A DNA stretch of 64,000 nucleotides from Escherichia coli. Its GTDB lineage: Bacteria; Pseudomonadota; Gammaproteobacteria; Enterobacterales; Enterobacteriaceae. The stretch lies in the NCBI RefSeq assembly GCF_001677475.2, contig NZ_CP015229.1; one strand, given 5' to 3'. The translations under genes were made by a program, and so were the position numbers. The notes below the pieces were generated by a model, which was not told the origin of the DNA, ran no database searches, and saw only the letters and a program-made list of their open reading frames with translations. Positions 1 to 64,000 of the stretch are shown in pieces (positions within the stretch are counted from its first letter, which is position 1; each line of letters begins with the position of its first letter).

Positions 1-1321
1 TATACATGTTGGCAGTTGGCCCACCGAGATCGGAAATTACGCCCGTAAAACCTGGAACGGTGTCGCGGATCGCTTCGATCTCATTGATGATCGAATCTTC
101 CGAACGGCTCTGAATAATGCGCCCTTCATGCTCGGTAATAGAACAGAAAGAACAGCCACCAAAGCAGCCACGCATAATGTTGACCGAGAAACGGATCATT
201 TCGTAAGCCGGAATACGAGCATTGCCATAGGCCGGATGCGGCACGCGCTTGTACGGCAGCGCAAAAACGCTGTCCATCTCTTCGGTAGAAAGCGGGATAG
301 CAGGCGGGTTGATCCACACATAGCGGTCGCCATGTTTTTGCATCAATGCGCGGGCGCAGCCTGGGTTAGTTTCGTGGTGCAGAATACGCGAAGCATGGGC
401 GTACAGCACTTTATCGCCCTTCACTTTCTCGAAAGAAGGCAGCAACACGTAGGTTTTTTCCCATGGTTTCGGGCGCGGCGGCTGCACAGTTACAGCTTTA
501 GCTTCCTGCTTTTTCGGGGCCACCGGTTTGTTATCCGCGCACGGCAGATCTTCGCCATACGGATGCGGGATTGGGTCGATTTTCCCTGGGGTATCAAGAC
601 GGGTGGAATCCACACCGCTCCAGCCAGGCAGCGCCTCTTTTACGATAATTGCGGTATTACGCACATCGCGGATTTCACTAATCGGCTCACCCATCGCCAG
701 ACGATGCGCCACCTCCACCAACGGACGCTCACCGTTACCGAACATCAGCATGTCGGCTTTCGAATCCACCAGCACGGAACGGCGCACGGTATCGGACCAG
801 TAATCATAATGCGCGGTACGGCGCAGACTAGCCTCAATACCGCCGAGGATCACCGGCACATCTTTCCACGCCTCTTTACAACGCTGGGTATAAACCAGTG
901 TGGCGCGATCCGGTCGCTTACCCGCGACGTTATCCGGCGTGTAGGCATCGTCATGACGTAAACGGCGATCGGCAGTGTAACGGTTGATCATCGAATCCAT
1001 GTTGCCAGCAGTAACACCAAAAAACAGATTCGGTTTACCCAGACGCATAAAGTCGTCTTTGCTGCTCCAGTCCGGCTGGGCGATGATCCCGACGCGAAAG
1101 CCCTGCGCTTCCAGCATACGACCGCAAATCGCCATCCCAAAGCTTGGGTGATCGACATACGCGTCGCCAGTAACCAAAATGATGTCGCAGCTATCCCAGC
1201 CAAGTTGATCCATCTCTTCACGAGACATCGGCAAAAACGGTGCCGGTCCAAAACAGGCGGCCCAGTACTGCGGCCAGGAGAACAGGTCGCGATCCGGTTG
1301 GATCAGGGAGATAGAGCTCAT
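1..1321 (-). CDS. ygiQ: Radical SAM protein YgiQ (UPF0313), N-terminal ~440 codons; the 3' end lies beyond the window start
   Basis: My own translation of the minus strand from the ATG at 1321-1319 gives [20 protein letters not shown]..., and the frame stays open to position 1. It is missing from the ORF track because no stop codon lies in the window. Synteny with ftsP supports the call. Confidence 0.85.
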
Positions 1322-1431
1322 TTTGCTTCCAGAAATGATAAAAAAATAATCAAAGGCCGGGGATTATAAGCCGGAACGAAAGAGAAATCGAAAGGTATTC
1401 CATACTCGCCCTCCTCGGGCGAGTATGAAGA

Positions 1432-2844
1432 TTACGGTACCGGATTGACCAACAGTTGCCCAATCGAGCCACGGTCCGCCATTTCCAGCGTCTGACTGTT
1501 GAAGTAGAACGGGAAGTGCGCCCAGGAAGGCTGACCAAAATAAACAAGCAGCTCCACTTGTCCGTCAACCCAAACGGTATCTTTCCAGCCTCTGTCTTCC
1601 GGGAACGGCATCGCGCCATTCACGTTACGGATCTGGAACATCACGCCTTCAATATGGAACGCTTGCGGCTCGTCCGCGCGTACCGTCCAGCGTTCCCATG
1701 TTCCTTGCTGCGCGGTGACATCAATACGGTTGACGTCCCACAGCTGTCCATTAATACCCGGGTCATCACCCAGACTGATATCGCGACTGCGAATTGGCGA
1801 ACCAGCCATGATTTCAGTTGGCAGCAAGCGCATCGGAAGACTGTCTGTGACCAGCGGCAGAAGGCCGGTTGGGCGCAGCGTTAGCACCAGGGTAGAAACC
1901 AGAATGCTGGATGGCTCAAAGAAGCCACGAATACGATCAACAATGCTCGCCGCTTCGCCACAGGTGATCGACACTTCATCACCGTTGCTCATATCCACCA
2001 GAATCTCGCGGCGCTCGCCCGGTGCCAGCGAAAGTTGCTTCACCGATACAGGAGCAGGCAGGAATCCCTGATCGCCAGAAATCACATGTAACGGGCGACC
2101 ATCGCTCATCTGTAGTTGATAGCGACGAGAGTTCGACGCGTTCAGCAGTCGCAAGCGCACCCAGCCGCGCGAGACTTCAACGTACGGGCTTTGTACACCG
2201 TTAACCAGCAGCGTATCACCAACAAAGCCGCCGCTTCCCGGTTCGTTGTATTCTGGCGTACCAAAGTTATCCAGCCGTTTATCCTGGATAATGACCGGAA
2301 AATCATCCACACCATAATGGTTGGGGATAGGCAGCGACTTGCTGACTTCATCTTCCACCAGCCACATTCCGGCAAGGCCGTTATAGACCTGCTGAGCCGT
2401 GCGGTTGGGAGTATTGGCGTGATACCACAGAGTAGCTGCGTTCTGGCGAATAGGCAGTACGGGTGCCCAGTCAGCGTTTGGCGACATCATCCGTGCCGGA
2501 CCGCCCATCAGCGGGCCTGGTACCTGTAGCCCGGACACCGTCATTGAGACATTTTCTGTCAGGCGGTTGCTGTAAATAAGCTTAACATCGTCGCCTTTCC
2601 AGACGCGGATAGTCGGCCCCAGGTAACGACCATTGATTCCCCAAACCGACGCGCGTGTCCCTGGCGTAAATGACCAGTGCGCACGTTGTACAGTCATAAA
2701 CAGCGGTTGCCCACGGCGAGATTCAAGCAGCGGCGGAACGGGTAGCGGTTGCTGTTGCCCGGCTGCGCTGGCCTTCAGGGGAACAGCGCCTGCACAAAGT
2801 GCAATCCCCGATGCCTGAATGAACTGACGCCGACTGAGTGACAT
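1432..2844 (-). CDS. ftsP: Cell division protein FtsP (SufI), multicopper-oxidase fold, Tat-exported
   Basis: 470 aa. Twin-arginine signal MSLSRRQFIQASGIALCAGAVPLKASA. Synteny. Confidence 0.95.
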   Translation of the reverse strand: MSLSRRQFIQASGIALCAGAVPLKASAAGQQQPLPVPPLLESRRGQPLFMTVQRAHWSFTPGTRASVWGINGRYLGPTIRVWKGDDVKLIYSNRLTENVSMTVSGLQVPGPLMGGPARMMSPNADWAPVLPIRQNAATLWYHANTPNRTAQQVYNGLAGMWLVEDEVSKSLPIPNHYGVDDFPVIIQDKRLDNFGTPEYNEPGSGGFVGDTLLVNGVQSPYVEVSRGWVRLRLLNASNSRRYQLQMSDGRPLHVISGDQGFLPAPVSVKQLSLAPGERREILVDMSNGDEVSITCGEAASIVDRIRGFFEPSSILVSTLVLTLRPTGLLPLVTDSLPMRLLPTEIMAGSPIRSRDISLGDDPGINGQLWDVNRIDVTAQQGTWERWTVRADEPQAFHIEGVMFQIRNVNGAMPFPEDRGWKDTVWVDGQVELLVYFGQPSWAHFPFYFNSQTLEMADRGSIGQLLVNPVP

Positions 2845-2918
2845 ATTTGCTCCATGTAAAACTGGCTAAAGTAATACCGTGCAGGAAAGTGTTCCCCGCA
2901 AAAATACAGATTGCCGAC

Positions 2919-3656
2919 TTAAACTTTTCCGGCGGCTTCGCGCTCTGCGACTTCTTTATCGAGCTCGGCGATTTTTTGTTCCATTATCGAACGACAATGG
3001 GCAGCCAGCTCACGAACCTGATCTTTGCCATACTGACTGACGTCAATTGGCGGCAGCATTTCGACAATCACCAGACCGTTGTGCAGTCGATTAAGATTAA
3101 TCTTATTCGAAGTTGTAGAGACACACACGGGAATAATCGGGACGCCCGCCGCAATTGCCGCGTGAAATGCCCCGGTCTTGAACGGTAGCAGGCCGCGACC
3201 ACGGCTGCGGGTACCTTCCGGGAACATCCAGATGGAAATACGGCGTTTTTTGAAGTGATTCACTACTTCCGCAATAGTGCCGTGAGCTTTAGTGCGATTA
3301 TTTCTGTCGATCAATAAGTTGCCGGTTAACCAGTACAACTGCCCGAAGAAGGGGATCCACAGCAAGCTCTTTTTACCTACCGTCACCGTCGGCGGTTGCA
3401 CAATGTTCGATGCTGTCACCATGTCATAGTTGTTCTGGTGGTTAGCGATATAGATAGCATTGCCGTAGCTTTCAGCGTCTGCAGGTTTGCGGCACTCAAC
3501 TTTCAGGCCGAACAGCGGCGCAAGACGGCCAAACATATGCCCAAAGGTGGCCACATGTTTCGGGTTACGCGGGCTGAAAAGGCAGTAAATGGAGCCGAAT
3601 ACACAGACTAAGATGCTGTAAATCACGGTAATAATAAGACGAAAGATATATAGCAT
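2919..3656 (-). CDS. plsC: 1-acyl-sn-glycerol-3-phosphate acyltransferase
   Basis: 245 aa with the acyltransferase HX4D motif (NHQNNYD). Synteny. Confidence 0.95.
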   Translation of the reverse strand: MLYIFRLIITVIYSILVCVFGSIYCLFSPRNPKHVATFGHMFGRLAPLFGLKVECRKPADAESYGNAIYIANHQNNYDMVTASNIVQPPTVTVGKKSLLWIPFFGQLYWLTGNLLIDRNNRTKAHGTIAEVVNHFKKRRISIWMFPEGTRSRGRGLLPFKTGAFHAAIAAGVPIIPVCVSTTSNKINLNRLHNGLVIVEMLPPIDVSQYGKDQVRELAAHCRSIMEQKIAELDKEVAEREAAGKV

Positions 3657-3818
3657 AACACCCTCTGAAGGTCTGAGAGACTGGCATTGTACGTCACCTG
3701 AAATCAGGTTAGGGCATTGTTAAAAGCCGCTCTCTGGAAAAGCGTATTGTTAATCGCAACGCATGAATAAACAACGGTTTCAAGGGAATTTTTATCGTTT
3801 CCGGGGGTTGAATACGCT

Positions 3819-3848
3819 GCCGGATGACGACTTAACGTTTCATCCGGC
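3819..3848. repeat. REP-like palindromic unit
   Basis: gccggatgacgacttaacgtttcatccggc, the GCCGGATG...CATCCGGC inverted repeat typical of enterobacterial REP. Confidence 0.6.
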
Positions 3849-3888
3849 GTTCCTTGCAAGCGGGAGGAAACAGGCCCTCCCCGGCATA

Positions 3889-6147
3889 TTACTCTTCGCT
3901 ATCACCACTGCTGGCACGGCGAGGAGAGTCGATCTCAACACGATCGATACGCTGCAAACCGCGCATCAACGTACCGCGGCGTCCACGTTCGCCAGTGACT
4001 TTCTGTAGCTCTTCCGGACGCAGTTTAATTTTGCGTTTCCCAACATGAATGGTCAGCGTGCTTTGCGGCGGCAGAACGTACAGTTGCGCAAGACCATCTT
4101 CTCCACGCGCGGCTTCTGCCGATGGAATGTTGATAATCTTGTTGCCTTTGCCCTTCGACAGCTGCGGCAGATCGCTTACCGGGAACATCAACATACGGCC
4201 TGCCTGAGTGATTGCCAGCAGCATATCGGAAGCATCTTCAATCACCACCGGCGGCATAACATGGGCATTTTCCGGTAAGGTGATCAAAGCTTTACCTGCA
4301 CGGTTACGCGCCACCAGATCGTTAAAGGTGCAGACGAAACCGTAACCCGCATCGGAAGCCATCAGCAGTTTCTGATCGTCGCTTTCCATCAGCATATGGT
4401 CAACGGTCGCCCCAGGCGGCAACGTTAATTTGCCGGTGAGCGGTTCGCCCTGACCACGCGCCGACGGCAGCGTAATCGGGTCAATGGCATAGCTACGACC
4501 GGTGGAATCAACAAACACTACCGGTTGGTTGCTCTTACCTTTCACCGCCGCTTTGAAGCTATCACCCGCTTTATAATTCAGGCCCGGCGCGTCGATATCA
4601 TGGCCTTTAGCGCTGCGTACCCAGCCCATCTGCGACAGCACAATAGTGACAGGTTCAGACGGCAGCATGTCGTGCTCGCTCATCGCTTTCGCTTCTTCGC
4701 GTTCCTGCAACGGCGAACGACGATCGTCACCGTAGGCTTGCGCGTCTGCCTGCAGTTCTTTCTTCAGCAGGTTATTCATTTTACGCTCGGAAGCCAAAAT
4801 GCCCTGCAACTGGTCGCGCTCTTTTTCCAGCTCACTCTGCTCACCGCGAATCTTCATCTCTTCCAGTTTGGCAAGATGACGCAGTTTCAGTTCGAGGATC
4901 GCTTCCGCCTGGGTTTCCGTAAGGCCAAACCGCGACATCAGCGCCGGTTTCGGTTCATCTTCATTACGAATGATCTCAATCACTTCGTCGATATTGAGAA
5001 ACGCCACCAGCAAACCTTCGAGGATATGCAGGCGCTTGAGGACTTTCTCCAGACGATAGTTCAGTCGGCGGCGCACGGTATCGCGGCGGAACACCAGCCA
5101 TTCAGAGAGGATTTCCAGCAGGTTTTTCACCGCCGGACGACCATCCAGACCGATCATATTGAGATTAATGCGATAGCTCTTTTCCAGATCGGTGGTAGCG
5201 AAGAGGTGGTTCATCACCTGATCCATATCCACGCGGTTGGAACGCGGCACAATCACCAGACGGGTCGGGTTCTCGTGGTCAGATTCATCGCGCAGATCGT
5301 CAACCATCGGCAGCTTTTTGTTGCGCATTTGCGCAGCAATTTGCTCCAGTACGCGCGCACCTGAAACCTGATGCGGCAATGCGCTGATAACCACCGCACC
5401 ATCTTCTTTCTTCCACACCGCGCGCATACGCACTGAACCACGTCCGTTCTCGTAGATTTTACGGATCTCGGCGCGCGAAGTGATAATTTCCGCTTCAGTC
5501 GGATAATCCGGCCCCTGCACGATATCCAGCAGCTGATCGAGCGTGGTTTTCGGCTGGTCGATTAATGCGATTGCCGCCTGAGCCACTTCACGCAGGTTAT
5601 GCGGTGGAATATCGGTCGCCATGCCGACGGCAATACCGGTGGTACCGTTAAGCAAAATGTTTGGCAGACGGGCAGGTAGCATTTTCGGCTCCTGCAAAGT
5701 GCCGTCGAAGTTTGGTACCCAGTCAGCCGTCCCCTGCCCCAGCTCGCTCAATAGCAGCTCGGAATATTTCGACAACCGGGATTCGGTGTAACGCATTGCC
5801 GCGAACGATTTCGGATCGTCCGGCGCGCCCCAGTTCCCCTGACCATCAACCAGCGGATAACGGTAAGAGAACGGCTGCGCCATCAGGACCATCGCTTCAT
5901 AACAGGCGCTATCGCCGTGCGGATGGTATTTACCCAGTACGTCACCGACTGTACGGGCCGATTTTTTAAATTTGGCGCTGGCATTCAGGCCCAGCTCAGA
6001 CATCGCATACACAATGCGGCGCTGAACAGGTTTCAGACCATCACCAATAAACGGCAACGCACGGTCCATGATCACGTACATGGAGTAGTTTAAGTAGGCG
6101 TTTTCCGTAAATTCATGTAGCGCAAGGCGCTCTGCCATATCGCTCAT
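3889..6147 (-). CDS. parC: DNA topoisomerase IV subunit A
   Basis: 752 aa, N-terminus [32 protein letters not shown], GyrA/ParC family. Confidence 0.97.
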
Positions 6148-6284
6148 TAATTCTGATTCCTCAACTTATTCGCCAGCCTTCAAAGGGGCAATATTGCCGG
6201 AGATACTACATTATCTGCCGCGTCGAGTCACAGGAGATCAGCGTGAATAGCGCCGCCGGACGTGCTCCGACGGCGATAAAGGCA

Positions 6285-7892
6285 TCAATGTGCCTTGATA
6301 TACAACTCTTTGCTGTAGACATAATCCTGGGGATTATGCAGCGGAAAACCGCCAACGTAGGGTTTAAGCAGTTTGATTAACGGCTGATAGTAGATAGGAA
6401 TCAGCGGTGCCTGTTGGTTGATGATCACTTCTGCCTGCTGATACAACGCATTACGCTTTGTCGCATCAGTGATCTGCGTGGCCTGGTTTAGTAAGGCGTC
6501 ATACTGCGCATTTTTCCAGTGACCGACGTTTTCTTCACTATCGCTTTTGAGCGTGTTCAGGAAGCTGGAAGCATCATTGTACGTCGTATCCCACGACTGC
6601 CGAGACAGCATGAAATCACCGGCTCGTCGGGCATCAAGATAGGTTTTCCACTCCATTGTACGCAGCGTCACCTGTGCACCCAGCCATTTTTTCCATTCGG
6701 AAGACAACGCTATCGCGGTCTTTTCATGCAGATCGTACTTGTTGTAGAACAGCTCAAAGCGTAGCGGATGAGAGGCGTCGTATCCCGCCTGTTTCAGCAA
6801 GGCTTTTGCCATCGCGACGCGCTCACTCATTGGCTTTTGCAGTTCATCGAACGTCGTCGTGCTAAAGCCTTTTACCTCTGGCGGCGTCAGCGTGGTTGCG
6901 GGCGTTCTCAACCCCAGTACCTTTTGCGCAATAAGCTGTCGATCAACCGTAAGATATAGCGCCCGACGCACTCGCACATCGTTAAATGGCGGTTTCTCAA
7001 GGTTAAAGTTGTAATATTCGCTGTTCAGACGCGGGATAATTCGTAGCTCGCCAGGCAGTGATTTTTCAATGGCAGGAATTTGCTGCGCCGGAACCCAGGT
7101 GAGATCGACCTCTCCCGCGCGATAGCGGTTATAGCCGGTGACCGAATTATCCAGCGCCAGATACTCAACTTGTTGCAATACTGTATGTTGCGCATCGCGG
7201 TACTTTGGATTTTTGCGTGCAGTAATCTTTTCGTTAACTACCCACTGTTCAAGCACAAAGGCACCGTTGTAAACCATGTTCTCTGGCTTACTCCAGCTAT
7301 CGCCATGTTTAGCGATGACATGATGAGGAACCGGGAACAGCGTCGGCCAGGCGAGCATCGTCGTGAACCAAGGAACCGGCTGCTCAAGCGTAACTTCAAG
7401 AGTACGATCATCCGTCGCTTTGACACCCAGCGATGTAACATCTGCTTTACCCGCAACAATAGCCGCGGCATTGTTAATGTGCGCCTGTGCCAGATAGCCA
7501 GCAAAAGGGCTTGCCGTTTTCGGGTCAACCGCGCGCTGCCAGCCGAGGACAAAATCCTCTGCCGTCAAAGGCTGACCGTCTGACCACTGCAAACCGCTAC
7601 GCAGATGGAAAATATAGCGCTTGCCGCCGTCCAGTATCTCCCAGCGTTCAGCCTGAGCGGGCTGCACCTGGCCTTCACCGTCCATCCATACCAGACCTTC
7701 AAACAGATCCAGCACAATCTGCGCGGCAGTATTCTCCTCCACCTTTTGCGGGTCGAGCGTACCTGGGTCGCTATGATTGTTGTAACGAAAGACTTGTTGC
7801 GGGGCGAGCGGTGTGTTGGCGGGAACGTCAGCAGCGTAGAGAGGTGCCGCACTTACCAGGCTGACCAGCCATAATAAATTTCGCGTATACAT
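6285..7892 (-). CDS. ygiS: Periplasmic solute-binding protein, family 5 (oligopeptide/bile-salt binding type)
   Basis: The ORF runs 6285-7955. I place the start at the internal ATG at 7892 (MYTRNLLWLVSLVSAAPLYA signal peptide), which is preceded by AAGGA. Confidence 0.9.
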   Translation of the reverse strand: MYTRNLLWLVSLVSAAPLYAADVPANTPLAPQQVFRYNNHSDPGTLDPQKVEENTAAQIVLDLFEGLVWMDGEGQVQPAQAERWEILDGGKRYIFHLRSGLQWSDGQPLTAEDFVLGWQRAVDPKTASPFAGYLAQAHINNAAAIVAGKADVTSLGVKATDDRTLEVTLEQPVPWFTTMLAWPTLFPVPHHVIAKHGDSWSKPENMVYNGAFVLEQWVVNEKITARKNPKYRDAQHTVLQQVEYLALDNSVTGYNRYRAGEVDLTWVPAQQIPAIEKSLPGELRIIPRLNSEYYNFNLEKPPFNDVRVRRALYLTVDRQLIAQKVLGLRTPATTLTPPEVKGFSTTTFDELQKPMSERVAMAKALLKQAGYDASHPLRFELFYNKYDLHEKTAIALSSEWKKWLGAQVTLRTMEWKTYLDARRAGDFMLSRQSWDTTYNDASSFLNTLKSDSEENVGHWKNAQYDALLNQATQITDATKRNALYQQAEVIINQQAPLIPIYYQPLIKLLKPYVGGFPLHNPQDYVYSKELYIKAH

Positions 7893-8000
7893 GGTATTCC
7901 TTACCGGAGAAATTATAAGCCCAATAACAATACGCCTGTGGCATTGTTCGCTCAAACTTATCGCGAGTGATTTGGCTCACACTCCGGTAAAGATTCCCCA

Positions 8001-8483
8001 TCACGCTAACGGTACATAAACATCCGTTTCCAGTCGCTGCTCTGTCACCCCTTCGGCAAGATTGGTGTAGTGAAACAGAATCGGTGCTTTACGCATTTTC
8101 TCGCCGCTTGCAGGCAGCCAGTGGCGAATAATGCCCCATATCGTGTGTGAAATATCGTCCAGCTCGCCAACATGGCGGGTAACAGCATAACGCCCACCGG
8201 TAAGTTCGCCATTACTCACGCCATAACGATTATCGGGGATCGGTTCGCTAACGCTGCCGCAGATATCAAAGCGAAACGCTTCCGGTGCGGTGGTGGCAGG
8301 GTCGTCCCAGGCGACGCCAAAAGTCTGGCTTTGGTTAACAGGAGAAAGCCCCGTCTCTTTACGCCACATGATAAATTTCGCCACGCTGTAGTTGAGCAAC
8401 TCAGGGCTACAGCGGTGCGGCAACATCGCCACAGGGATTGATGGGAAATCGATAATATTTACATCCAGTGTCAGGTTTGTCAT
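8001..8483 (-). CDS. ygiV: GyrI-like (effector-binding) domain protein / transcriptional repressor YgiV
   Basis: 160 aa. Synteny next to ygiW-qseBC. Confidence 0.85.
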   Translation of the reverse strand: MTNLTLDVNIIDFPSIPVAMLPHRCSPELLNYSVAKFIMWRKETGLSPVNQSQTFGVAWDDPATTAPEAFRFDICGSVSEPIPDNRYGVSNGELTGGRYAVTRHVGELDDISHTIWGIIRHWLPASGEKMRKAPILFHYTNLAEGVTEQRLETDVYVPLA

Positions 8484-8535
8484 TTTGCCTCCCTGCGAAA
8501 TTATTCCCGGGAACGCGTCCCGGGAGCGGTAACAA

Positions 8536-8928
8536 TTACGGATTTACTTTGCGGATCTGTTTGACGTCAATTTCAACAGAATTCCAGTCTTTATCGACTT
8601 CCCCCTGAATCTCAACCGTATCTTTCGGCGTCACCGTCACGCCGTTCCAGCGTTTGTGGTCGATATCAACATTGATAGTACCGCTGGCATCTTTGAACAC
8701 GTAGAGATCGTCAGAGATGCGTTCAACGATATTGCCGCGCAGGGTTACCCAGGTGTCGTCACGCAGGGATTTTGCGCTTTCTACAGTCGTTACGCTGCCA
8801 TTCGGCCCCTGGAATCCTCCGGCCTGACTTTGCGTTGCCGATGGGCCAGAAAAACCGCCCTGCTCTGCTGCCATCACCGGTGCGCTGCACAGGGCCATTA
8901 CTGCGATTACTGCTGCGAATTTTTTCAT
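8536..8928 (-). CDS. ygiW: Periplasmic OB-fold (BOF family) stress protein
   Basis: Start at 8928 (MKKFAAVIAVMALCSAPVMA signal peptide) with a GGAG Shine-Dalgarno upstream. The longer track ORF extension lacks a Shine-Dalgarno. Confidence 0.9.
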   Translation of the reverse strand: MKKFAAVIAVMALCSAPVMAAEQGGFSGPSATQSQAGGFQGPNGSVTTVESAKSLRDDTWVTLRGNIVERISDDLYVFKDASGTINVDIDHKRWNGVTVTPKDTVEIQGEVDKDWNSVEIDVKQIRKVNP

Positions 8929-9079
8929 GTTTATTACTCCCTTTAATGTCTGTTTCCGAGCATTTAACAAGATAGTCCTTAACAACTTCTTAAGGGAAAA
9001 AAATAAAATTTAATGCTGTACAGAGCGCGTTACAACACGGTTTACTGGCAGCAAATACGGTTATCGCAGGGATGAAAAA

Positions 9080-9739
9080 ATGCGAATTTTACTGATAGAA
9101 GATGACATGCTGATTGGCGACGGCATCAAAACGGGCCTTAGTAAAATGGGTTTTAGCGTCGACTGGTTTACACAAGGTCGTCAGGGAAAAGAGGCGCTAT
9201 ACAGCGCACCTTATGATGCGGTGATCCTGGATTTAACCTTACCAGGCATGGATGGTCGCGATATTTTGCGCGAATGGCGAGAAAAAGGTCAGCGTGAGCC
9301 GGTATTGATCCTGACCGCGCGCGATGCGCTGGCGGAACGTGTAGAAGGGCTGCGTCTGGGAGCTGACGATTATCTGTGTAAACCTTTTGCGTTGATAGAA
9401 GTCGCCGCCAGGCTAGAAGCTCTGATGCGCCGAACCAACGGCCAGGCCAGCAACGAGCTGCGCCACGGCAACGTCATGCTCGACCCCGGCAAACGTATCG
9501 CCACACTGGCTGGCGAACCCTTAACGCTGAAACCAAAAGAATTTGCCCTGCTGGAATTACTGATGCGTAACGCTGGTCGGGTACTGCCGCGCAAACTGAT
9601 TGAAGAGAAACTGTATACCTGGGACGAAGAGGTCACCAGTAATGCCGTTGAAGTGCATGTGCATCATCTGCGACGCAAACTCGGCAGTGATTTTATTCGT
9701 ACCGTTCATGGTATTGGCTACACATTAGGTGAGAAATGA
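9080..9739 (+). CDS. qseB: Two-component response regulator QseB (OmpR family)
   Basis: 219 aa with a receiver domain plus winged-helix domain. Its stop overlaps the qseC start. Confidence 0.95.
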
Positions 9740-54475: not shown

Positions 54476-54551
54476 GGCCCCTTAGCTCAGTGGTTAGAGC
54501 AGGCGACTCATAATCGCTTGGTCGCTGGTTCAAGTCCAGCAGGGGCCACCA
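54476..54551 (+). tRNA. ileX: tRNA-Ile2 (anticodon CAU, lysidine-modified)
   Basis: 76 nt, ggcccct...aggggcc acceptor stem, anticodon loop ctCATaa, T-arm ggttcaagtcc, encoded CCA. The position after mug matches ileX. Confidence 0.92.
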
Positions 54552-55356: not shown

Positions 55357-55641
55357 TTACCGCCGCAGTCGTTCCGGCTTCTTCCACTGGTAAGTATTTT
55401 TCGCGCTCTCCCTCCGTTGTTGAGAACGGCGACGGTATGCCAGCAACTCAAGGACTCTGATCCGTATGTCGCGCATATCCACGCCGTTAAGCTCGATACC
55501 GTCACGGCGCATCATCTCTGCCACCACACGCGCGTAATTTTCGGCTATCACGCTGTCCGGCTGCGTGGCCTCCTATTTGCTTGATGGTTGTTTGATTCCG
55601 GTAACGCGGCGGATTAATCCCAGCAATTCAGATTCTGTCAT
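55357..55641 (-). pseudogene. Unknown island ORF interrupted by an in-frame TAG
   Basis: The ATG at 55641 gives MTESELLGLIRRVTGIKQPSSK, then a TAG at 55575-55573. The same frame continues EATQPDSVIAENYARVVAEMMRRDGIELNGVDMRDIRIRVLELL..., which is the track ORF 55357-55551 (GTG start, no usable Shine-Dalgarno). Confidence 0.4.
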
Positions 55642-55652
55642 AGTGCGCTACG

Positions 55653-56055
55653 TTACTTGTCTTTATTCGGCTGCAACTTATCCGGCACATTTCCGGTAGT
55701 TTCCATCAGGTAATCAGCCAGTATCTGTGGGAGGTTGTCGGCAACTCTGGCACTGGCATTACAGGCTTTAACCACTTCCCTTTTAAGCCCATCCAGCATA
55801 GCGGGGGTAATGTGTGGGAAGCTCCTTTGCATAGTAAGCGGGAGGCTGTCCATGATTGATGAAATCTGACTCGCCAGTTTTGAAAGCGCGTACATGCAAA
55901 ACTCTGTATCAATCACGTCACCGCGATCGCGCTCGTTTTTAAGTTCCTGCGCCTCCGCCTGTGCTGTCAGTAATCTGATCCTGACTCGTAAGTATGAGAC
56001 GACAATAACTCAGTCCGCCTGGCGCCGATTATTCTGGCCGGTTTTGTAACCTGAG
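55653..56055 (-). pseudogene. Nu1-type terminase small subunit, C-terminal part (separated from its N-terminal part by the IS; extra frameshift near 55983)
   Basis: Minus-strand translation gives ...RIRLLTAQAEAQELKNERDRGDVIDTEFCMYALSKLASQISSIMDSLPLTMQRSFPHITPAMLDGLKREVVKACNASA.... This aligns by hand with lambda Nu1 ...HRLTRAQADAQELKNARDSAEVVETAFCTFVLSRIAGEIASILDGLPLSVQRRFPELENRHVDFLKRDIIKAMNKAA (recalled from memory). Confidence 0.8.
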
Positions 56056-56085
56056 TGTCATTTACATGATCCAACAGGAAATGGC

Positions 56086-57514
56086 GTGACGCTCAATACT
56101 TCTCAGGTCAGTTACTATATGACTCAGCGTAAGAAAGGTATAACTCAGCATATCTCGGCCATGAAGGCTGGTATCTCAGTCCGTTCTGGTCGTCGGATCG
56201 AAAAAGGAGAGTGGGCAAAAAACAGTGTTCGGCACTGGCGCACACGCAAAGATCCTCTGGAAGCTGTGTGGGACAGCATGCTTGTTCCTCTGTTGAAAGA
56301 GAGGCCGGCTCTGACACCAACAACTCTACTGGAGATGCTACAGGATAAATATCCCGGCCAGTACCCCAACAGCCTTCGAAGAACAATGCAACGGCGGGTT
56401 CGCGAATGGAAACTACAGTATGGTACAGAGCAGGAGGTCATGTTCCGCCAGCAACATCAGCCCGGCCTGCGAGGCCTGTCGGACTTTACTGAACTGAAAG
56501 GTGTAGTTGTCACCATCGCCGGTAAGTTGTTGGCGCATAAGTTGTATCACTTCCGTCTGGAATGGAGCCACTGGAGCTGGATGCGGGTTGTTCTGGGTGG
56601 TGAGAGCTTCTCTGCTCTGGCTGAAGGCCTGCAGGAAGCCCTCGGACAACTGGGCGGAGTGCCGGTAGAACATAAAACGGACAGCCTGAGGGCAGCATGG
56701 AAACAACAGGGCGAAGATGGACGCCGCGAGCTGACTGAGCGTTATGCTACTCTCTGTCAGCACTACGGAATGCAGGGCGTACACAATAATGCCGGTCGGG
56801 GCCACGAAAATGGCTCGGTTGAAAGTGCCCACGGACATCTGAAAAGGCGTATCTGTCAGGCGCTGATACTGCGGGGCAGTAACGACTTCAGCACCATAGA
56901 AGAATATCAGGCCTTCATCACTCAGCAGGTTATGCGGCACAACCGTAACAATCAGGATCTGGTCAAGGAAGAACGTCTTCATCTGAAACCGCTGCCGCTT
57001 CGTCGCAGTGCTGACTATGATGAGCTGACTGTGAGGGTTAGTCGCAGCAGTACCATCAATGTGAAGCACGTCGTCTACAGCGTACCTTCCCGGCTTGTAG
57101 GTCAACTGTTACGGGTCAGGTTATGGGACGATCGTCTGAGCTGTTACGTTGGCAGCAGCGAGGTCATGAGCTGCCCTCGCGTCAGACCAGAAAAAGGGAA
57201 GACGCGGGCCCGTCGTATCGACTTCCGACATGTGATCGACAGTCTGGCAAAAAAGCCCGGTGCGTTCTGCCATGCAACGCTGAGAAATGACATCCTGCCG
57301 GACGATGAATGGCGGAGGCTGTGGCGTCGCTTATGTAATCATCTGGAGCCCGATATGGCAGGAAGGCTGATGGTACATGCCGGGAAACGTGGATCTGCAC
57401 CGGCTGATGCGCTTCCTGGGTATAAAAGAAAAGGCGTTGCCGGTAGTCAATGTGATACAGCATAACCTGAGCAGTTATGAGCAACTACTGCGTGGCAAGG
57501 GAGGTTCGCAGTGA
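56086..57514 (+). pseudogene. istA: IS21-family transposase IstA with an apparent frame disruption near the 3' end
   Basis: The track ORF 56086-57465 (459 aa, HTH plus DDE region) ends in ...HAGKRGSAPADALPGYKRKGVAGSQCDTA. The +1 frame from 57371 reads WYMPGNVDLHRLMRFLGIKEKALPVVNVIQHNLSSYEQLLRGKGGSQ*, and its TGA overlaps the istB GTG (GTGA at 57511-57514). That overlap is the canonical istA/istB junction. Confidence 0.65.
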
Positions 57515-58266
57515 GCAATATCCATCACCTTGAACATAGCCTGCGTAAACTACGCCTGACACGAGTTGGAGCTGAATGGCACGCTCTGGAAAAACGAGCG
57601 CTGGCAGAAGGCTGGACACCATCGCGCTATCTTCTGACGCTATGCAATGAAGAACTCCTGTGGCGCGAGAGTGAAAAACTGCGTCGTTATAAAAAGGAGG
57701 CCCGGTTGCCAGTTGCCAAAACGCTGAGCGAATACGACTTCAGTCAGGTGCCGGAACTGAATGGAGCTCAGTTCCGGCAACTCTGTGAAACGACAGACTG
57801 GGTTGATGCAGGAGAAAACGTTCTGCTGTTCGGAGCCAGCGGGTTGGGGAAAAGCCATCTGGCGGCAGCGATCGTGGATGGCGTAGTAGGTCAGGGCTAC
57901 CGGGCCCGGTTCTACAGCGCAGGAGAGCTGTTGCAGGAACTACGTAAAGCCAGAGCTCAGTTGAAACTGAATGAGCTGCTACTGAAACTGGATCGCTACC
58001 GGGTGATAGTGGTGGATGATCTTGGCTATGTCAAACGCGATAGTGCCGAAACGGGTGTGCTGTTCGAGTTAATAGCGCATCGCTATGAACGTGGGAGCCT
58101 GGTGATAACCAGTAACCATCCGTTCAGCATGTGGGGCAGCATCTTCGTGGATGAGACTATGGCGGTGGCTGCGGCAGACAGGCTGATCCATCACGGATAT
58201 ATGTTCGAACTGAAAGGGGAAAGCTACAGGAAAAAGACAGCGAAGGCAGTAACAAGCGCGACTTGA
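57511..58266 (+). CDS. istB: IS21-family ATP-binding helper IstB
   Basis: 251 aa, Walker A GASGLGKSH, Walker B VIVVDDLG. A GGGAGG Shine-Dalgarno lies upstream of the GTG. Confidence 0.92.
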   Translation: MSNIHHLEHSLRKLRLTRVGAEWHALEKRALAEGWTPSRYLLTLCNEELLWRESEKLRRYKKEARLPVAKTLSEYDFSQVPELNGAQFRQLCETTDWVDAGENVLLFGASGLGKSHLAAAIVDGVVGQGYRARFYSAGELLQELRKARAQLKLNELLLKLDRYRVIVVDDLGYVKRDSAETGVLFELIAHRYERGSLVITSNHPFSMWGSIFVDETMAVAAADRLIHHGYMFELKGESYRKKTAKAVTSAT

Positions 58267-58325
58267 TGTCGCCCTGAAGGGTGCGGCCAGTATAGTTGGC
58301 GCGAGTCGGCAAAACTAGTTGACGT

Positions 58326-58541
58326 CTAATATCGTAAGAGTTCATCATCATCAATCTCGCCTTTGTCGTTTGTAAGCTGGCTAATTGCATTGTTAACCCT
58401 ATTGTCTATCACGCTGGCAACATCATAAAACGCCTCACGGCCTTTACGTTCAACGGGAGTCACTCCCCACTTGTCGAATGCTGTAGCACTTACCCGGCAG
58501 CTTTGCGCCATGGTTTTTTTGTTCATCAGGTGCGATTTCAT
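58326..58541 (-). pseudogene. Nu1-type terminase small subunit, N-terminal winged-HTH part (truncated at the IS junction)
   Basis: (MKSHL)MNKKTMAQSCRVSATAFDKWGVTPVERKGREAFYDVASVIDNRV... compared with lambda Nu1 MEVNKKQLADIFGASIRTIQNWQEQGMPVLRGGGKGNEVLYDSAAVIKWY (recalled). It lies about 150 nt downstream of cosN, as in lambda. The reading frame hits a TAG exactly at the IS end. Confidence 0.75.
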
Positions 58542-58559
58542 CAATATCCCAACTTGGTC

Positions 58560-58718
58560 AAGGTTTCAGGTTGGTGTGTTGGTGTTATCTTTCCCTTTTT
58601 ATTCATGGAGATAGAGCAAACAACAAAACCACCACCACCCCCCTGAAAAAGCTCATAAATAGCGAAAAACCGCGAGGTCGCCGCCCCGTAACGGGTCCAT
58701 ATGCCGGAAAGGACCCGT
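58560..58718 (-). other. Lambda-type cos site: cosQ-like and cosN core (58651-58718) plus a divergent cosB-side region (58560-58650)
   Basis: Minus strand reads ttACGGGTCCTTTCCGGcatatggacccGTTACG GGGCGGCGACCT CGCGGtTTTTCGCTATTTATGAgc.... Capitals match the lambda right end ...ACGGGTCCTTTCCGGTGATCCGACAGGTTACG and the left end GGGCGGCGACCTCGCGGGTTTTCGCTATTTATGAAAA as I recall them. The 12-nt cohesive-end sequence lies at 58675-58686. Confidence 0.85.
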
Positions 58719-58742
58719 AAAAAAAGCCGGATTTCTCCGGCC
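58719..58742 (-). terminator. Intrinsic terminator ending the capsid operon, immediately upstream of cos
   Basis: Minus strand reads gccgga-gaaa-tccggc followed by ttttttt. A near-identical hairpin recurs at 61002-61017. Confidence 0.85.
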
Positions 58743-58747
58743 TTGTC

Positions 58748-59161
58748 TCAGATGGTTTTCAGTATGCGATCGATGTCGCCATCATCGCCCGGGTTTCTGC
58801 CAGCGTATGCCATACCAGCTGATACGGCTTTCGGGCTGTGCATGTCCATAAAGTTTTCAAAGGCTGCGGTAAGCTCTGGTGCAACCTTCTGGCGTTCCTG
58901 CTCTATGGTCATGCTAAGGATGCTTTTAGCCGTACCAACATCGATACAAGGCACGTTTGCCATTGCACGTAACAGCGGCTGATAGTCGCCAGATTCATCA
59001 AGCGCCATAATCGCATCAGAGCGCGGCTTGTCCTTCTCTTCCAGGCTGTTAAGTTGATATACGGCCTCGTAGGTTGATAAACCTCTGTCAGCCATTGCCC
59101 GCGCTTCGGCCTTAAATTTACTCGCCAGCGGTAGCGTCATGATGCTTTCATTCGTTGCCAT
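58748..59161 (-). CDS. Hypothetical 137-aa protein, last gene of the capsid block
   Basis: The ORF has a GAGGGA Shine-Dalgarno 12 nt after the gpD-like stop. I recognise no family. It is acidic with helical character. Confidence 0.6.
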   Translation of the reverse strand: MATNESIMTLPLASKFKAEARAMADRGLSTYEAVYQLNSLEEKDKPRSDAIMALDESGDYQPLLRAMANVPCIDVGTAKSILSMTIEQERQKVAPELTAAFENFMDMHSPKAVSAGMAYAGRNPGDDGDIDRILKTI

Positions 59162-59173
59162 CGTTCCCTCTGC

Positions 59174-59509
59174 TTATCGGGCCAGTGGCTGAACGGATAC
59201 GCCAGAACCCGCAAAGGCGGCGCATTTTTTCGCATCGGTGTCGACGCTCTCAGGCCAGTTAACGGCGGCGATATTAAATATCCCCGTCTTATAGCACTGT
59301 GCTGATTTCTGCGTCGACGTGTCAACGGGGTACGAGGTCAGATAAACAGCCTTGCCAGATTCCTGACCATCCCACGGCTTAAACTCGCCATTTTCCGCCA
59401 GCATCAGCGGGGTAAATTCCTGAATAACTCCAGCATCAGCGGCAAAATGTACCAGCGTCGTGGATACCTGCTGACTGCCTGCAAATAACTCAATGTATGG
59501 AGTGTTCAT
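59174..59509 (-). CDS. Head decoration protein, lambda gpD-like
   Basis: 111 aa. Shared motifs with lambda gpD (recalled): TPLML, WDG, YK(S/T)G.F, WPE, AFAG..(I/V)S(I/V). GGGGGA Shine-Dalgarno. Confidence 0.8.
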   Translation of the reverse strand: MNTPYIELFAGSQQVSTTLVHFAADAGVIQEFTPLMLAENGEFKPWDGQESGKAVYLTSYPVDTSTQKSAQCYKTGIFNIAAVNWPESVDTDAKKCAAFAGSGVSVQPLAR

Positions 59510-59520
59510 AGAATCCCCCG

Positions 59521-60576
59521 TTAAGCAATTTTGACGGTAACAAATTTGCGAATATCTGCCGGTACCGGCTGCGGTGCGCTGTGCGTCTGCACGTACTCAA
59601 TCGCCGGATCGCCATCCTCAATCCAGTTTTTCGGGTAGTACATGTTTTGCGTTGCGCCAGTTCTTACCGCTTCCGGATCCATAATCGCACCATAGGCCAC
59701 CAGCCCTTTATTGTTAGTGTTGCCCAGGACAAGCAAATCAGGCTCAAGGAAATATTTTTCGGTGCCATCGCTGTCGGTGTATTTGCCGGAATAGACGATA
59801 AGGGCCAGATCACCCAGATAGCCTTTAAAGCTCACCACTTCGCCCAGGTTTTTACAGGCCAGCTCTGCGGCGGATTCTGAACCACGGGAAAGATCGTACA
59901 GTTCACGGAATTTTTTAAAGCTGCGTAACGTGCGCCATACCTCAGCGCCCATAATCATGACGTTGGCGGGGCAACCAGCCTGATCGGTGTATAGTTCGAT
60001 GTCATAGATTGGATCGTGTGTTTCCTTATCTGCCTCAGACCACTTTTTGCCCGATCCCTGCGTAATGATGTTTTTAGTCGGGATTTTCCAGTCGATTTCG
60101 TATCTATTTATTCCTTCGCCCTCAATGATGTTTTTTCCGGTCGTGACCGCATTCACCGCCAGCCATTCTATGCGAGCTTTAATAGCGTTTACCTGGCGGC
60201 GCATGTTGCCAGTAATCAGGCGCATACGGCGATAAGTTGGATCGTTAAGCTGTGCCGGATCTTCTCCAGCCATGCGCATGATGGTTTTTGATGGATCGAT
60301 TTCGTGTTTTGGTTTCATATAGCCAGGGCGGATAGTGCTTGTTTCGTACCCTTTATCGCGCTGAACCTGACTCCCCACCATAGGCGAACAAAAAGCCGAC
60401 ATGGTGACTTCTTCAATATCCAGGGTATCTAACATGATGTCCTGCGTGTTGAAGGTTGCCACGTTCGGGAAAAACAGCGACGTAAACAGCGGACTGAATT
60501 TAAATTCCGAAATATCCCCACGATTCAGGTACGCGAAAAGCTGGTTAGTGTTAAGTGCCGTTGCTTTGCCTGTCAT
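59521..60576 (-). CDS. Major capsid protein, lambda gpE family
   Basis: 351 aa. FKFSPLFTSLFF vs lambda FKFDPLFLRLFF; PGYMKPKHEIDP vs PGYVKPKHEVNP; DPTYRRMRLI vs DPAYRRRRII; YPKNWIEDGDPA vs YPKNWVTTGDPA (lambda recalled from memory). Confidence 0.9.
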   Translation of the reverse strand: MTGKATALNTNQLFAYLNRGDISEFKFSPLFTSLFFPNVATFNTQDIMLDTLDIEEVTMSAFCSPMVGSQVQRDKGYETSTIRPGYMKPKHEIDPSKTIMRMAGEDPAQLNDPTYRRMRLITGNMRRQVNAIKARIEWLAVNAVTTGKNIIEGEGINRYEIDWKIPTKNIITQGSGKKWSEADKETHDPIYDIELYTDQAGCPANVMIMGAEVWRTLRSFKKFRELYDLSRGSESAAELACKNLGEVVSFKGYLGDLALIVYSGKYTDSDGTEKYFLEPDLLVLGNTNNKGLVAYGAIMDPEAVRTGATQNMYYPKNWIEDGDPAIEYVQTHSAPQPVPADIRKFVTVKIA

Positions 60577-63988: not shown

Positions 63989-64000
63989 TATCGATTTTAC

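Follow-up and report, generated by a model that had tools for sequence, protein, structure and literature searches.

The 64,000-nt window analyzed here, a stretch of Escherichia coli contig NZ_CP015229.1, contains terS, the small terminase subunit gene, as part of a phage-inducible chromosomal island (PICI) of ~11 kb that belongs to the EcCICFT073/EcCIIHE3034 family, and this gene is split by one copy of the insertion sequence (IS) ISEc10. Comparison of the sequences makes it likely, with a probability of about 0.7, that the intact TerS combines satellite-specific cos recognition with recruitment of the large terminase subunit (TerL) of a lambda-type helper, and that this function was lost here via one ISEc10 insertion. 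In the proposed mechanism, the N15-type winged helix–turn–helix (wHTH) domain of TerS would bind the island cosB motif (GGTGGTGGT..GTTGTTT), located about 48–70 bp from the nick site and with an inverted partner some 50 bp beyond it. The Nu1-like central and C-terminal parts would assemble and recruit from a lambda-like helper its gpA-type TerL, which the island does not encode. The helper TerL would cut the lambda-identical island cosN and use the lambda-like cosQ for termination, and island concatemers would therefore be packaged in preference to helper DNA. Such a route would be the cos-phage counterpart, by analogy, of the TerS strategy of Staphylococcus aureus pathogenicity islands (SaPIs), and an alternative to Rpp, which is encoded in the same slot in EcCICFT073. 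The features on which this reading is based are given below.

58332..58541, minus strand: terS 5′ fragment, codons 1–70 of a 180-aa protein, ATG at 58541, from the list of open reading frames (ORFs)
55653..55985, minus strand: terS 3′ fragment, codons 71–180 and the stop codon, from frame translation
55993..58331, plus strand: ISEc10 (IS21 family), 2339 bp, with istA at 56086–57465 and istB at 57511–58266
55986..55992 (left copy) and 58332–58338 (right copy): 7-bp target-site duplication TCGTAAG, from repeat comparison
58564..58718, minus strand: cos1, aligned with the cos of lambda, phi80 and N15 and with cos1 of EcCICFT073

Judged from its sequence, the terS 5′ fragment corresponds to the entire N15-type DNA-binding domain. 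An alternative TTG start is present one codon 5′ of the ATG, at 58544, and the ORF at 58326..58544 (minus strand) is translated as MKSHLMNKK...DDELLRY followed by a stop, with its start given as MKSHLMNKKTMAQSCRVSATAFDKWGV. The 3′ fragment spans the linker, the self-assembly region and the C-terminal tail, and the frame closing at 55653 on the minus strand encodes ...RIRLLTAQAEAQELKNERD...PNKDK before its stop codon. The ends of the intervening element are marked by the longest inverted repeat of the region, in which 55993–56040 pairs with 58284–58331, and the ISEc10 copy of CFT073 aligns end to end with 55993–58331 at 98.2–98.7% identity, except for a 70-bp gap. The two copies have in common the istA–istB pair, the terminal inverted repeats and a short target duplication (6–7 bp in CFT073), all features of the IS21-family element ISEc10, and the matching copies carry the RefSeq label “IS21-like element ISEc10 family.” The left end is also seen in a clonal draft contig of GCA_018683435.1, which has 6340 nt identical to the window and ends precisely at window position 55992; the NCBI protein P0091 from this contig (“terminase small subunit, partial”) starts with LRVRIRLL and matches the terS 3′ fragment at 100%. 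The right TCGTAAG copy forms the final 7 nt of the terS 5′ fragment. When the IS and one TCGTAAG copy were removed, so that 58544–58332 was joined to 55985–55653, the result was a 546-nt ORF free of stops and frameshifts, and the repaired terS is a single open frame of 180 or 181 codons depending on the start. Because this removal yields an uninterrupted frame, terS carries one lesion, the ISEc10 insertion after codon 70, and there is no other defect in the gene.

These data agree in part with the preliminary description of the region, which had been made from the sequence alone. The two Nu1-like fragments with an IS21-family element between them are borne out by the ORFs and by istA and istB. 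The IS boundary had been put at 56055, while the inverted repeats, the alignment with the CFT073 copy and the contig stop at 55992 all place the actual end at 55993. Because of this placement, 63 nt of IS terminus, together with the duplicated target, had been taken for terS, which led to the supposed frame switch near 55983; precise IS removal leaves an unbroken ORF, and the residues “...SSHTYE” ascribed to terS are the IS terminus and the duplicated target in another frame. The TAG noticed at the junction does exist, at 58326–58328, but it is IS sequence (TAT TAG ACG...), and through the first six IS bases on the terS strand (TAT TAG) the truncated TerS gains a tyrosine and then terminates. 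Hence, the inactivation of terS by an IS21-family insertion stands, while the claim of at least two lesions comes down to one. An IS insertion combined with an independent frameshift near 55983 would account for the apparent change of frame (...SSHTYE / RIRLL...) if the IS ended at 56055; given the end at 55993 and an uninterrupted repaired ORF colinear with intact alleles 93–97% identical to it, this explanation is refuted and retains practically no probability.

A 401-nt probe over the left IS junction had no covering match in any complete E. coli genome, which marks the insertion as private to this clone. The ISEc10 copy is itself shortened, as it is without 70 bp of the CFT073 copy at ~57380 inside istA, and eight ISEc10 copies from complete genomes, among the matches listed, are each ~71 bp longer over the same istA stretch. 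The deletion shifts the frame of IstA near its C-terminal end (459 aa versus 499 aa), and therefore this copy may be unable to transpose unaided. The truncated terS ORF (58326–58541, minus strand) retains its own start and upstream region, and can still encode a predicted 71-residue product, composed of 70 TerS residues and the tyrosine, which would be the DNA-binding domain only.

Uninterrupted alleles, which the preliminary description had proposed to look for in other genomes, are common. A match to the repaired 543-nt ORF, contiguous over its whole length and annotated as “terminase small subunit,” is present in 758 of the 5,426 complete E. coli genomes, and the carriers of an intact copy, about one genome in seven, include Nissle 1917 as well as O157:H7 and O145:H28 strains. 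The intact 180-aa alleles are 93–97% identical to the repaired protein in both halves and colinear with it, which shows that both fragments come from one gene, as had been assumed. In strain TUM1886 an intact terS, 96% identical, is located at the same chromosomal site. Further decayed alleles were also seen: a fusion of terS with the downstream 93-aa-family gene (P0085), a fusion of the decoration protein gene D with terS (P0112), and a sequence diverging after residue 116 (P0090). The gene and the island type are thus common and already catalogued in E. coli, the island type having been published in 2018.

The assignment of the protein as a Nu1-type small terminase, made in the preliminary description, was confirmed by profile comparisons. 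Pfam Phage_Nu1 (PF07471) matched at 82.6 bits, above its cut-off of 30 (E = 3.1e-23), over residues 64–149 only, while PHROG 57 (terminase small subunit) spanned residues 1–177 (E = 3e-52). A profile of the intact alleles aligned by hhalign with lambda Nu1 over 6–166 versus 3–180, with 99.9% probability, E = 1e-31 and 38% identity, and it also reached PDB entry 6hn7_B (lambda TerS 1–98; E = 0.0048); a single-sequence PDB search with TerS gave no match. Both fragments contribute to this similarity. The N fragment keeps the outline of the lambda Nu1 wHTH, as noticed before, with 17 of 45 residues identical in a gapped BLASTP alignment to Nu1 residues 3–47 (E = 2e-4), which points to a wHTH fold of the N domain. 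The earlier estimate that the C fragment is about half identical to lambda Nu1 also holds, since BLASTP of the terS 3′ fragment gave 43/95 identities (45%) to Nu1 86–180 (E = 1e-31). The order of wHTH, linker, and assembly/TerL-binding half is common to lambda gpNu1, whose DNA-binding domain structures are 1J9I, 7LW0 and 6HN7. As in lambda, terS adjoins cosN–cosB on the downstream side, with cosN base 1 at 58686 and the ATG at bp 146. No adjacent large-terminase (gpA/TerL) gene was found in the part of the island within the window or in complete related islands, as is expected of a satellite.

To compare the divergence of the parts of the protein, identities were calculated separately for residues 1–70 and 90–end, as had been suggested, as well as for the intervening block and the tail.

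Repaired TerS versus lambda Nu1: residues 1–70 27%, 71–89 63%, 90–end 39%, last ~30 17%
Repaired TerS versus N15 gp1: residues 1–70 47%, 71–89 53%, 90–end 39%, last ~30 21%
Repaired TerS versus PhiR12_5: residues 1–70 11%, 71–89 47%, 90–end 49%, last ~30 37%

With phi80 the identities were 23% for residues 1–70 and 34% for 90–end. The expected pattern of a diverged DNA-binding half and a conserved C-terminal half is thus seen weakly in comparison with lambda and phi80 (27% and 23% versus 39% and 34%), while it is reversed in comparison with N15 gp1 (47–54% in the N half, 39% in the C half). N15 gp1 is the closest phage TerS overall (46%), with 33 of 61 residues identical by BLASTP in the N half (54%; E = 3e-23), and the predicted recognition helices (AFDKWGV) are nearly identical. 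Among the phage-collection matches listed, N15 is the sole Escherichia phage with similarity through an N15-type N half, and the lambda-like phages listed are 32–36% identical to the island TerS. The last ~30 residues of lambda Nu1 include the part that binds gpA, and it is these residues that are least conserved between the island protein and lambda (17%).

The mosaicism was further examined in 101 full-length representatives obtained from a search of 1.84 billion proteins. The island TerS was resembled in both halves by 65 of the 101, in the C half only by 28 and in the N half only by 8, and the identities of the N and C halves were uncorrelated (r = −0.06). Thus, as far as sequences tell, mosaicism is a trait of the whole family and no signature of this island. 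The most fitting description of the protein is an N15-type DNA-binding domain followed by a C half that forms its own lineage. The nearest C half is that of P0123, which is 69% identical including the METTGNVPEKL tail; P0123 was considered as a phage TerS with a matching C half, but it belongs to another PICI. This different PICI (L015 8001–8585, GCA_003721875.1; with alpA, AntA, DUF4222, DUF927 primase, SSB, ProQ and PerC genes) has a lambda-like R3 in its cosB, and its TerS, 194 aa long, combines a DNA-binding domain of the lambda type with a C half 69% identical to that of the window island and the same unusual C-terminal extension.

The cos1 site is intact in this strain, and the island-specific sequence in it begins past a lambda-type cosN. 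The cosQ-like sequence ACGGGTCCTTTCCGG is located at 58704–58718 and appears to match lambda cosQ. The cohesive-end sequence GGGCGGCGACCT is at 58675–58686, with bp 1 at 58686, and cos bp 1–34, counting from GGGCGGCGACCT, are as in lambda apart from one base. From bp 39 the sequence is specific to the island, with the cosB TTTCAGGGGGGTGGTGGTGGTTTTGTTGTTTG at 58617–58648 and an inverted partner CACCAACACACCAACCTGAAA at 58564–58587, the two forming a 13-nt inverted repeat (CACCAACCTGAAA) with a 59-nt spacer. A search, made without mismatches, for the exact IHF consensus WATCAANNNNTTR found no match in the island cosB, so a degenerate site is possible. The presence of the island's own cosB beside a lambda-type cosN fits the earlier suggestion that its TerS would serve as a redirector of packaging specificity.

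That the N domain reads cosB is, in this analysis, best supported by their covariation. In N15 the R3 site was mapped at bp 48–60 (PMC9026076), where the sequence is GAGGTTGTTGTTT. The motif GGTGGTGGT..GTTGTT.TTT is present in the cosB of three divergent elements with an N15-type TerS domain: the window type; P0105, which is found in helper-embedded PICIs and is a TerS 56% identical to the island one; and P0124, from a metagenomic element with a different cosN and a C half only 35% identical. A lambda-like R3 is found in the elements with the lambda-type domain, namely in lambda and phi80, in the L022 prophage and in the PICI that encodes P0123. This pattern across sequences suggests that the DNA-binding domain and cosB are matched. 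In common with N15, the island cosB has a G/T-rich R3-like motif with GTTGTTT; the cosB of N15 is reportedly described by Feiss et al. 2015 and is reviewed in PMC9026076. The differences are that the GTTGTTT core of N15 is ~9–10 bp nearer cosN than in the island, that the island also has the inverted partner site, and that N15 has its own cohesive end GGGCGGCGTCCG and a lambda-type C half, to which that of the island is only 39% identical.

The similarity to N15 could alternatively mean that there is no specificity change, and that TerS was acquired from a helper sharing its N15-type domain and cosB and only raises the TerS dosage. The 54% identity of the domain to N15 gp1 and the resemblance of the cosB motif to N15 R3 (GAGGTTGTTGTTT, PMC9026076) are in line with this. 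We consider it improbable, as the island cohesive end is of the lambda/phi80 type, unlike that of N15, as N15 is the one Escherichia phage among the matches listed that is similar through the N half (46% overall), and as the prophage type hosting the embedded relatives has a phi80-type TerS, which is 27% identical in the DNA-binding domain. The relatives encoding P0105 sit in capsid gene E of lambda-like prophages (L017–L019, about 1–9100), and PICIs embedded in gene E are an arrangement described by Williams and co-workers (PMC10111431). As a proxy for the helper, an “empty” prophage of E. coli ECCRA-119 (L022) with a 99.5% identical capsid-gene segment was used, although prophages are mosaic and the true helper terminase may differ from that of the proxy. 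The cohesive end of this prophage is N15-like (GGGCGGCGTCCG), while its TerS is of the phi80 type and is identical to P0105 at 27% in the DNA-binding domain, 52% in the middle and 35% in the tail. The DNA-binding domain is thus the part in which the satellite TerS and that of the presumed helper differ most, which fits a change of specificity.

Several observations weigh against the proposal that the island TerS redirects the helper terminase. Direct binding of TerL is an assumption, because the tail is not helper-like: the extreme C-terminus of TerS is 17–30% identical to those of lambda or phi80 and has a 12-residue extension. Among the phage TerS matches, the best C halves, those of PhiR5_1 and the PhiR12 series, are only 51–55% identical, too distant to point to a helper. 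The AlphaFold model of the intact allele, made with a 26-sequence alignment, is poor (predicted local distance difference test score, pLDDT, 56; predicted template modeling score, pTM, 0.28), with helices in the expected places, so that the fold of the N domain is predicted from sequence homology.

The weak tail is also relevant to another explanation, in which the island TerS is an interference factor that forms mixed oligomers with the helper TerS via the central region and poisons helper cos recognition like Rpp, TerL being reached through the helper TerS. The block best conserved in comparison with lambda, phi80 and the TerS of the helper-type prophage is the linker and assembly region (63% in 71–89; 43–52% in 66–140), rpp and terS are alternative cassettes at one position between the same cos repeats, and Rpp acts as a heterocomplex with the helper TerS (PMC6739421). 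On the other hand, the protein keeps a full-length Nu1 architecture with a tail alignable to the gpA-binding region, unlike Rpp, and it has no sequence similarity to RppA. Hence, this explanation deserves consideration but appears unlikely, and redirection of a lambda-type terminase by the island TerS is preferred. Consistent with a difference from Rpp, RppA is without the TerL-binding part and heterodimerizes with the helper TerS (Fillol-Salom et al. 2019, Mol Cell, PMC6739421), while the window TerS is a full-length Nu1 homolog; the comparison of the two proteins gave E = 1.3 in BLASTP and a probability of 0.07% in hhalign, and there was no match to RppC in PDB searches.

The preliminary description had concluded that the island is probably packaging-dead in this strain. 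The loss of terS function is upheld, while “dead” seems too strong. In earlier work EcCICFT073 was transferred and TerS-encoding islands were not (PMC6092414), and in the absence of Rpp, helper phages still transferred cloned EcCICFT073 cos sites that carried the island cosB, to a reduced extent (PMC6739421). Because cos1 is intact and the EcCICFT073 cos moved without Rpp, island transfer in this strain is, by analogy, probably reduced, perhaps strongly, rather than impossible.

The relation of the island to known PICIs is close. EcCIIHE3034 and EcCI18098 are listed as TerS-encoding E. coli PICIs by Fillol-Salom et al. 2018, ISME J (PMC6092414). EcCIIHE3034 shares with the window island the succession of genes between int and the 93-aa gene, a TerS with 167 of 180 residues identical (93%), a nearly identical cos1, and capsid, decoration and 137-aa proteins that are 93–96% identical. 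It differs in its location at cspD–clpS, while the window island is at the tRNA beside mug/rpoD, in its intact terS, and in carrying, downstream of terS, a second cos in inverted orientation (cos2) that the window allele does not have. EcCICFT073, at CFT073 1377930–1388654, has a common backbone with terS islands (94% DNA identity on both sides of terS or rppA), a common cosQ/cosN, an island-specific cosB directly 5′ of the gene and the same presumed purpose, redirection of a lambda-type terminase to island DNA; it differs in that rppA (144 aa) fills the slot of terS. IHE3034 and CFT073 are 94% identical to ~35 bp past cosN of cos1 and again from cos2 onward, and the replaced segment consists of 790 bp of cosB-terS (L016 9242–10031) versus 662 bp of cosB-rpp (L010 47600–48261). 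The two cos copies are inverted repeats of 65 bp, 88% identical, which bracket the terS/rpp cassette and may promote swapping of the cosB-terS and cosB-rpp cassettes. The terS-type cosB contains (GGT)4 at bp 48–59 (window 58628–58639), while the rpp-type cosB contains the complement ACCACCACCAC at bp 54–64; according to Murialdo and Feiss, bp 55–63 are reportedly invariant among Rpp-type PICIs. Judged from the sequences, (GGT)4 and ACCACCACCAC are possibly the same element in opposite orientation.

In comparison with lambda gpNu1, the differences are the low identity of the island TerS in residues 1–70 (27%) and in the last 30 (17%), the 12-residue C-terminal extension, the missing adjacent TerL gene, and a different cosB with no exact WATCAANNNNTTR match. 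SaPI TerS proteins are of the pac/headful type and form an unrelated family, while the window TerS is a cos-type protein of the Nu1 family. The concept proposed for the latter is the same, as a functional analogy only: the SaPI TerS is a satellite small terminase that pairs with the helper large terminase and recognizes satellite DNA only (PMC6739421). In the literature searchable here, no functional study of TerS-type E. coli PICIs was found. We tentatively suggest that TerS islands use an uncharacterized, non-Rpp form of redirection, based on a cos TerS with exchangeable parts, in which the DNA-binding domain always occurs with a matching cosB, the C half belongs to a satellite-specific lineage (69% identity between the window PICI and the P0123 PICI, and ≤55% to any phage TerS found), and the cassette lies between inverted cos copies.

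The surroundings of cos1 and terS in the window contain the following further features.

58723..58744, minus strand: terminator-like stem–loop followed by a T-run, from an inverted repeat, between the 137-aa gene and cos1
58748..59161, minus strand: gene of a 137-aa island protein (PHROG 1999; PHROG 53)
59174–59509, minus strand: lambda D-like decoration protein (Pfam HDPD, E = 4.9e-18)
59521–60576, minus strand: lambda E-like major capsid protein (Pfam Phage_cap_E, E = 3.3e-52)
55357..55641, minus strand: 93-aa-family gene, the last of the island (PHROG 1561), with an in-frame TAG at codon 23
54476..54551, plus strand: tRNA with CAT anticodon (ARAGORN), beside mug and rpoD, adjoining the terS-side end of the island

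Within the window the genes follow one another as primase (D5_N/Pox_D5), 81-aa gene, gene of the single-stranded DNA-binding protein (SSB), 68/79-aa gene, E-like capsid, D-like decoration, 137-aa gene, cos, terS, 93-aa gene and tRNA, and the int/alpA end of the island is beyond position 64000. In TUM1886 the corresponding site holds an island 96% identical, whose far end carries int and alpA, and L012–L014 likewise have the island there, int and alpA included. With these relatives included, the layout is that of Gram-negative PICIs: int, alpA, a primase/replication module, ~10–11 kb, a specific att site, and no lysis or tail genes. TerL, portal and tail genes were not found in the related complete islands examined, and the capsid and decoration proteins are 94–96% identical to those of EcCICFT073. 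The clustering of Nu1-, E- and D-like genes with a lambda-type cos could also be produced by the decay of a lambdoid prophage, of whose Nu1 gene the two fragments would be debris. This is very improbable, as the compact layout int-alpA-primase-SSB-E-D-137aa-terS-93aa, which has no TerL, portal, protease or tail genes, is seen again at various chromosomal sites and in hundreds of genomes and matches published PICIs (PMC6092414), and as the order E, D, then cos-terS is unlike lambda. The gene is hence the TerS of a satellite island, in agreement with what had been proposed.

The 137-aa protein matches only positions 494–568 of the 583 of PHROG 53 (head maturation protease; E = 1.3e-8), and a related element (L020 1843–3228) has a full 461-aa S49 peptidase in its slot; the gene therefore looks like the retained scaffold (Nu3-like) portion of a lambda-type head protease. 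The in-frame TAG of the 93-aa gene (55573–55575) falls in a short segment of local divergence that is one codon longer, and the intact islands L012–L014 at the same site have a sense codon in its place. This stop is, from these comparisons, a second island defect, which is outside terS. A spacer of ~244 bp with cos2 is missing here, and the next gene starts 11 nt past terS (window 55642–55655). The spacer is present in TUM1886, 2011C-3911, IHE3034 and CFT073 (compare L001 10203–10457 and L010 48094–48372). Its loss as a deletion private to this strain was considered and rejected, since the intact islands L012–L014 share the terS/93-aa junction, which makes it an allelic form. The tRNA at 54476–54551 is called tRNA-Met by ARAGORN, while RefSeq calls the same gene in TUM1886 tRNA-Ile, and the island integrase is at the end far from this tRNA, beside nfeF in TUM1886.

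Taken alone, the split gene in the window matters little, since it amounts to a strain-specific knock-out by an IS, and the gene is already annotated by RefSeq in hundreds of E. coli genomes. The covariation of the DNA-binding domain with cosB, however, leads to a concrete, testable prediction of the binding site of the island TerS, and the presence of terS or rpp in otherwise near-identical islands would provide a natural comparison with the Rpp mechanism.

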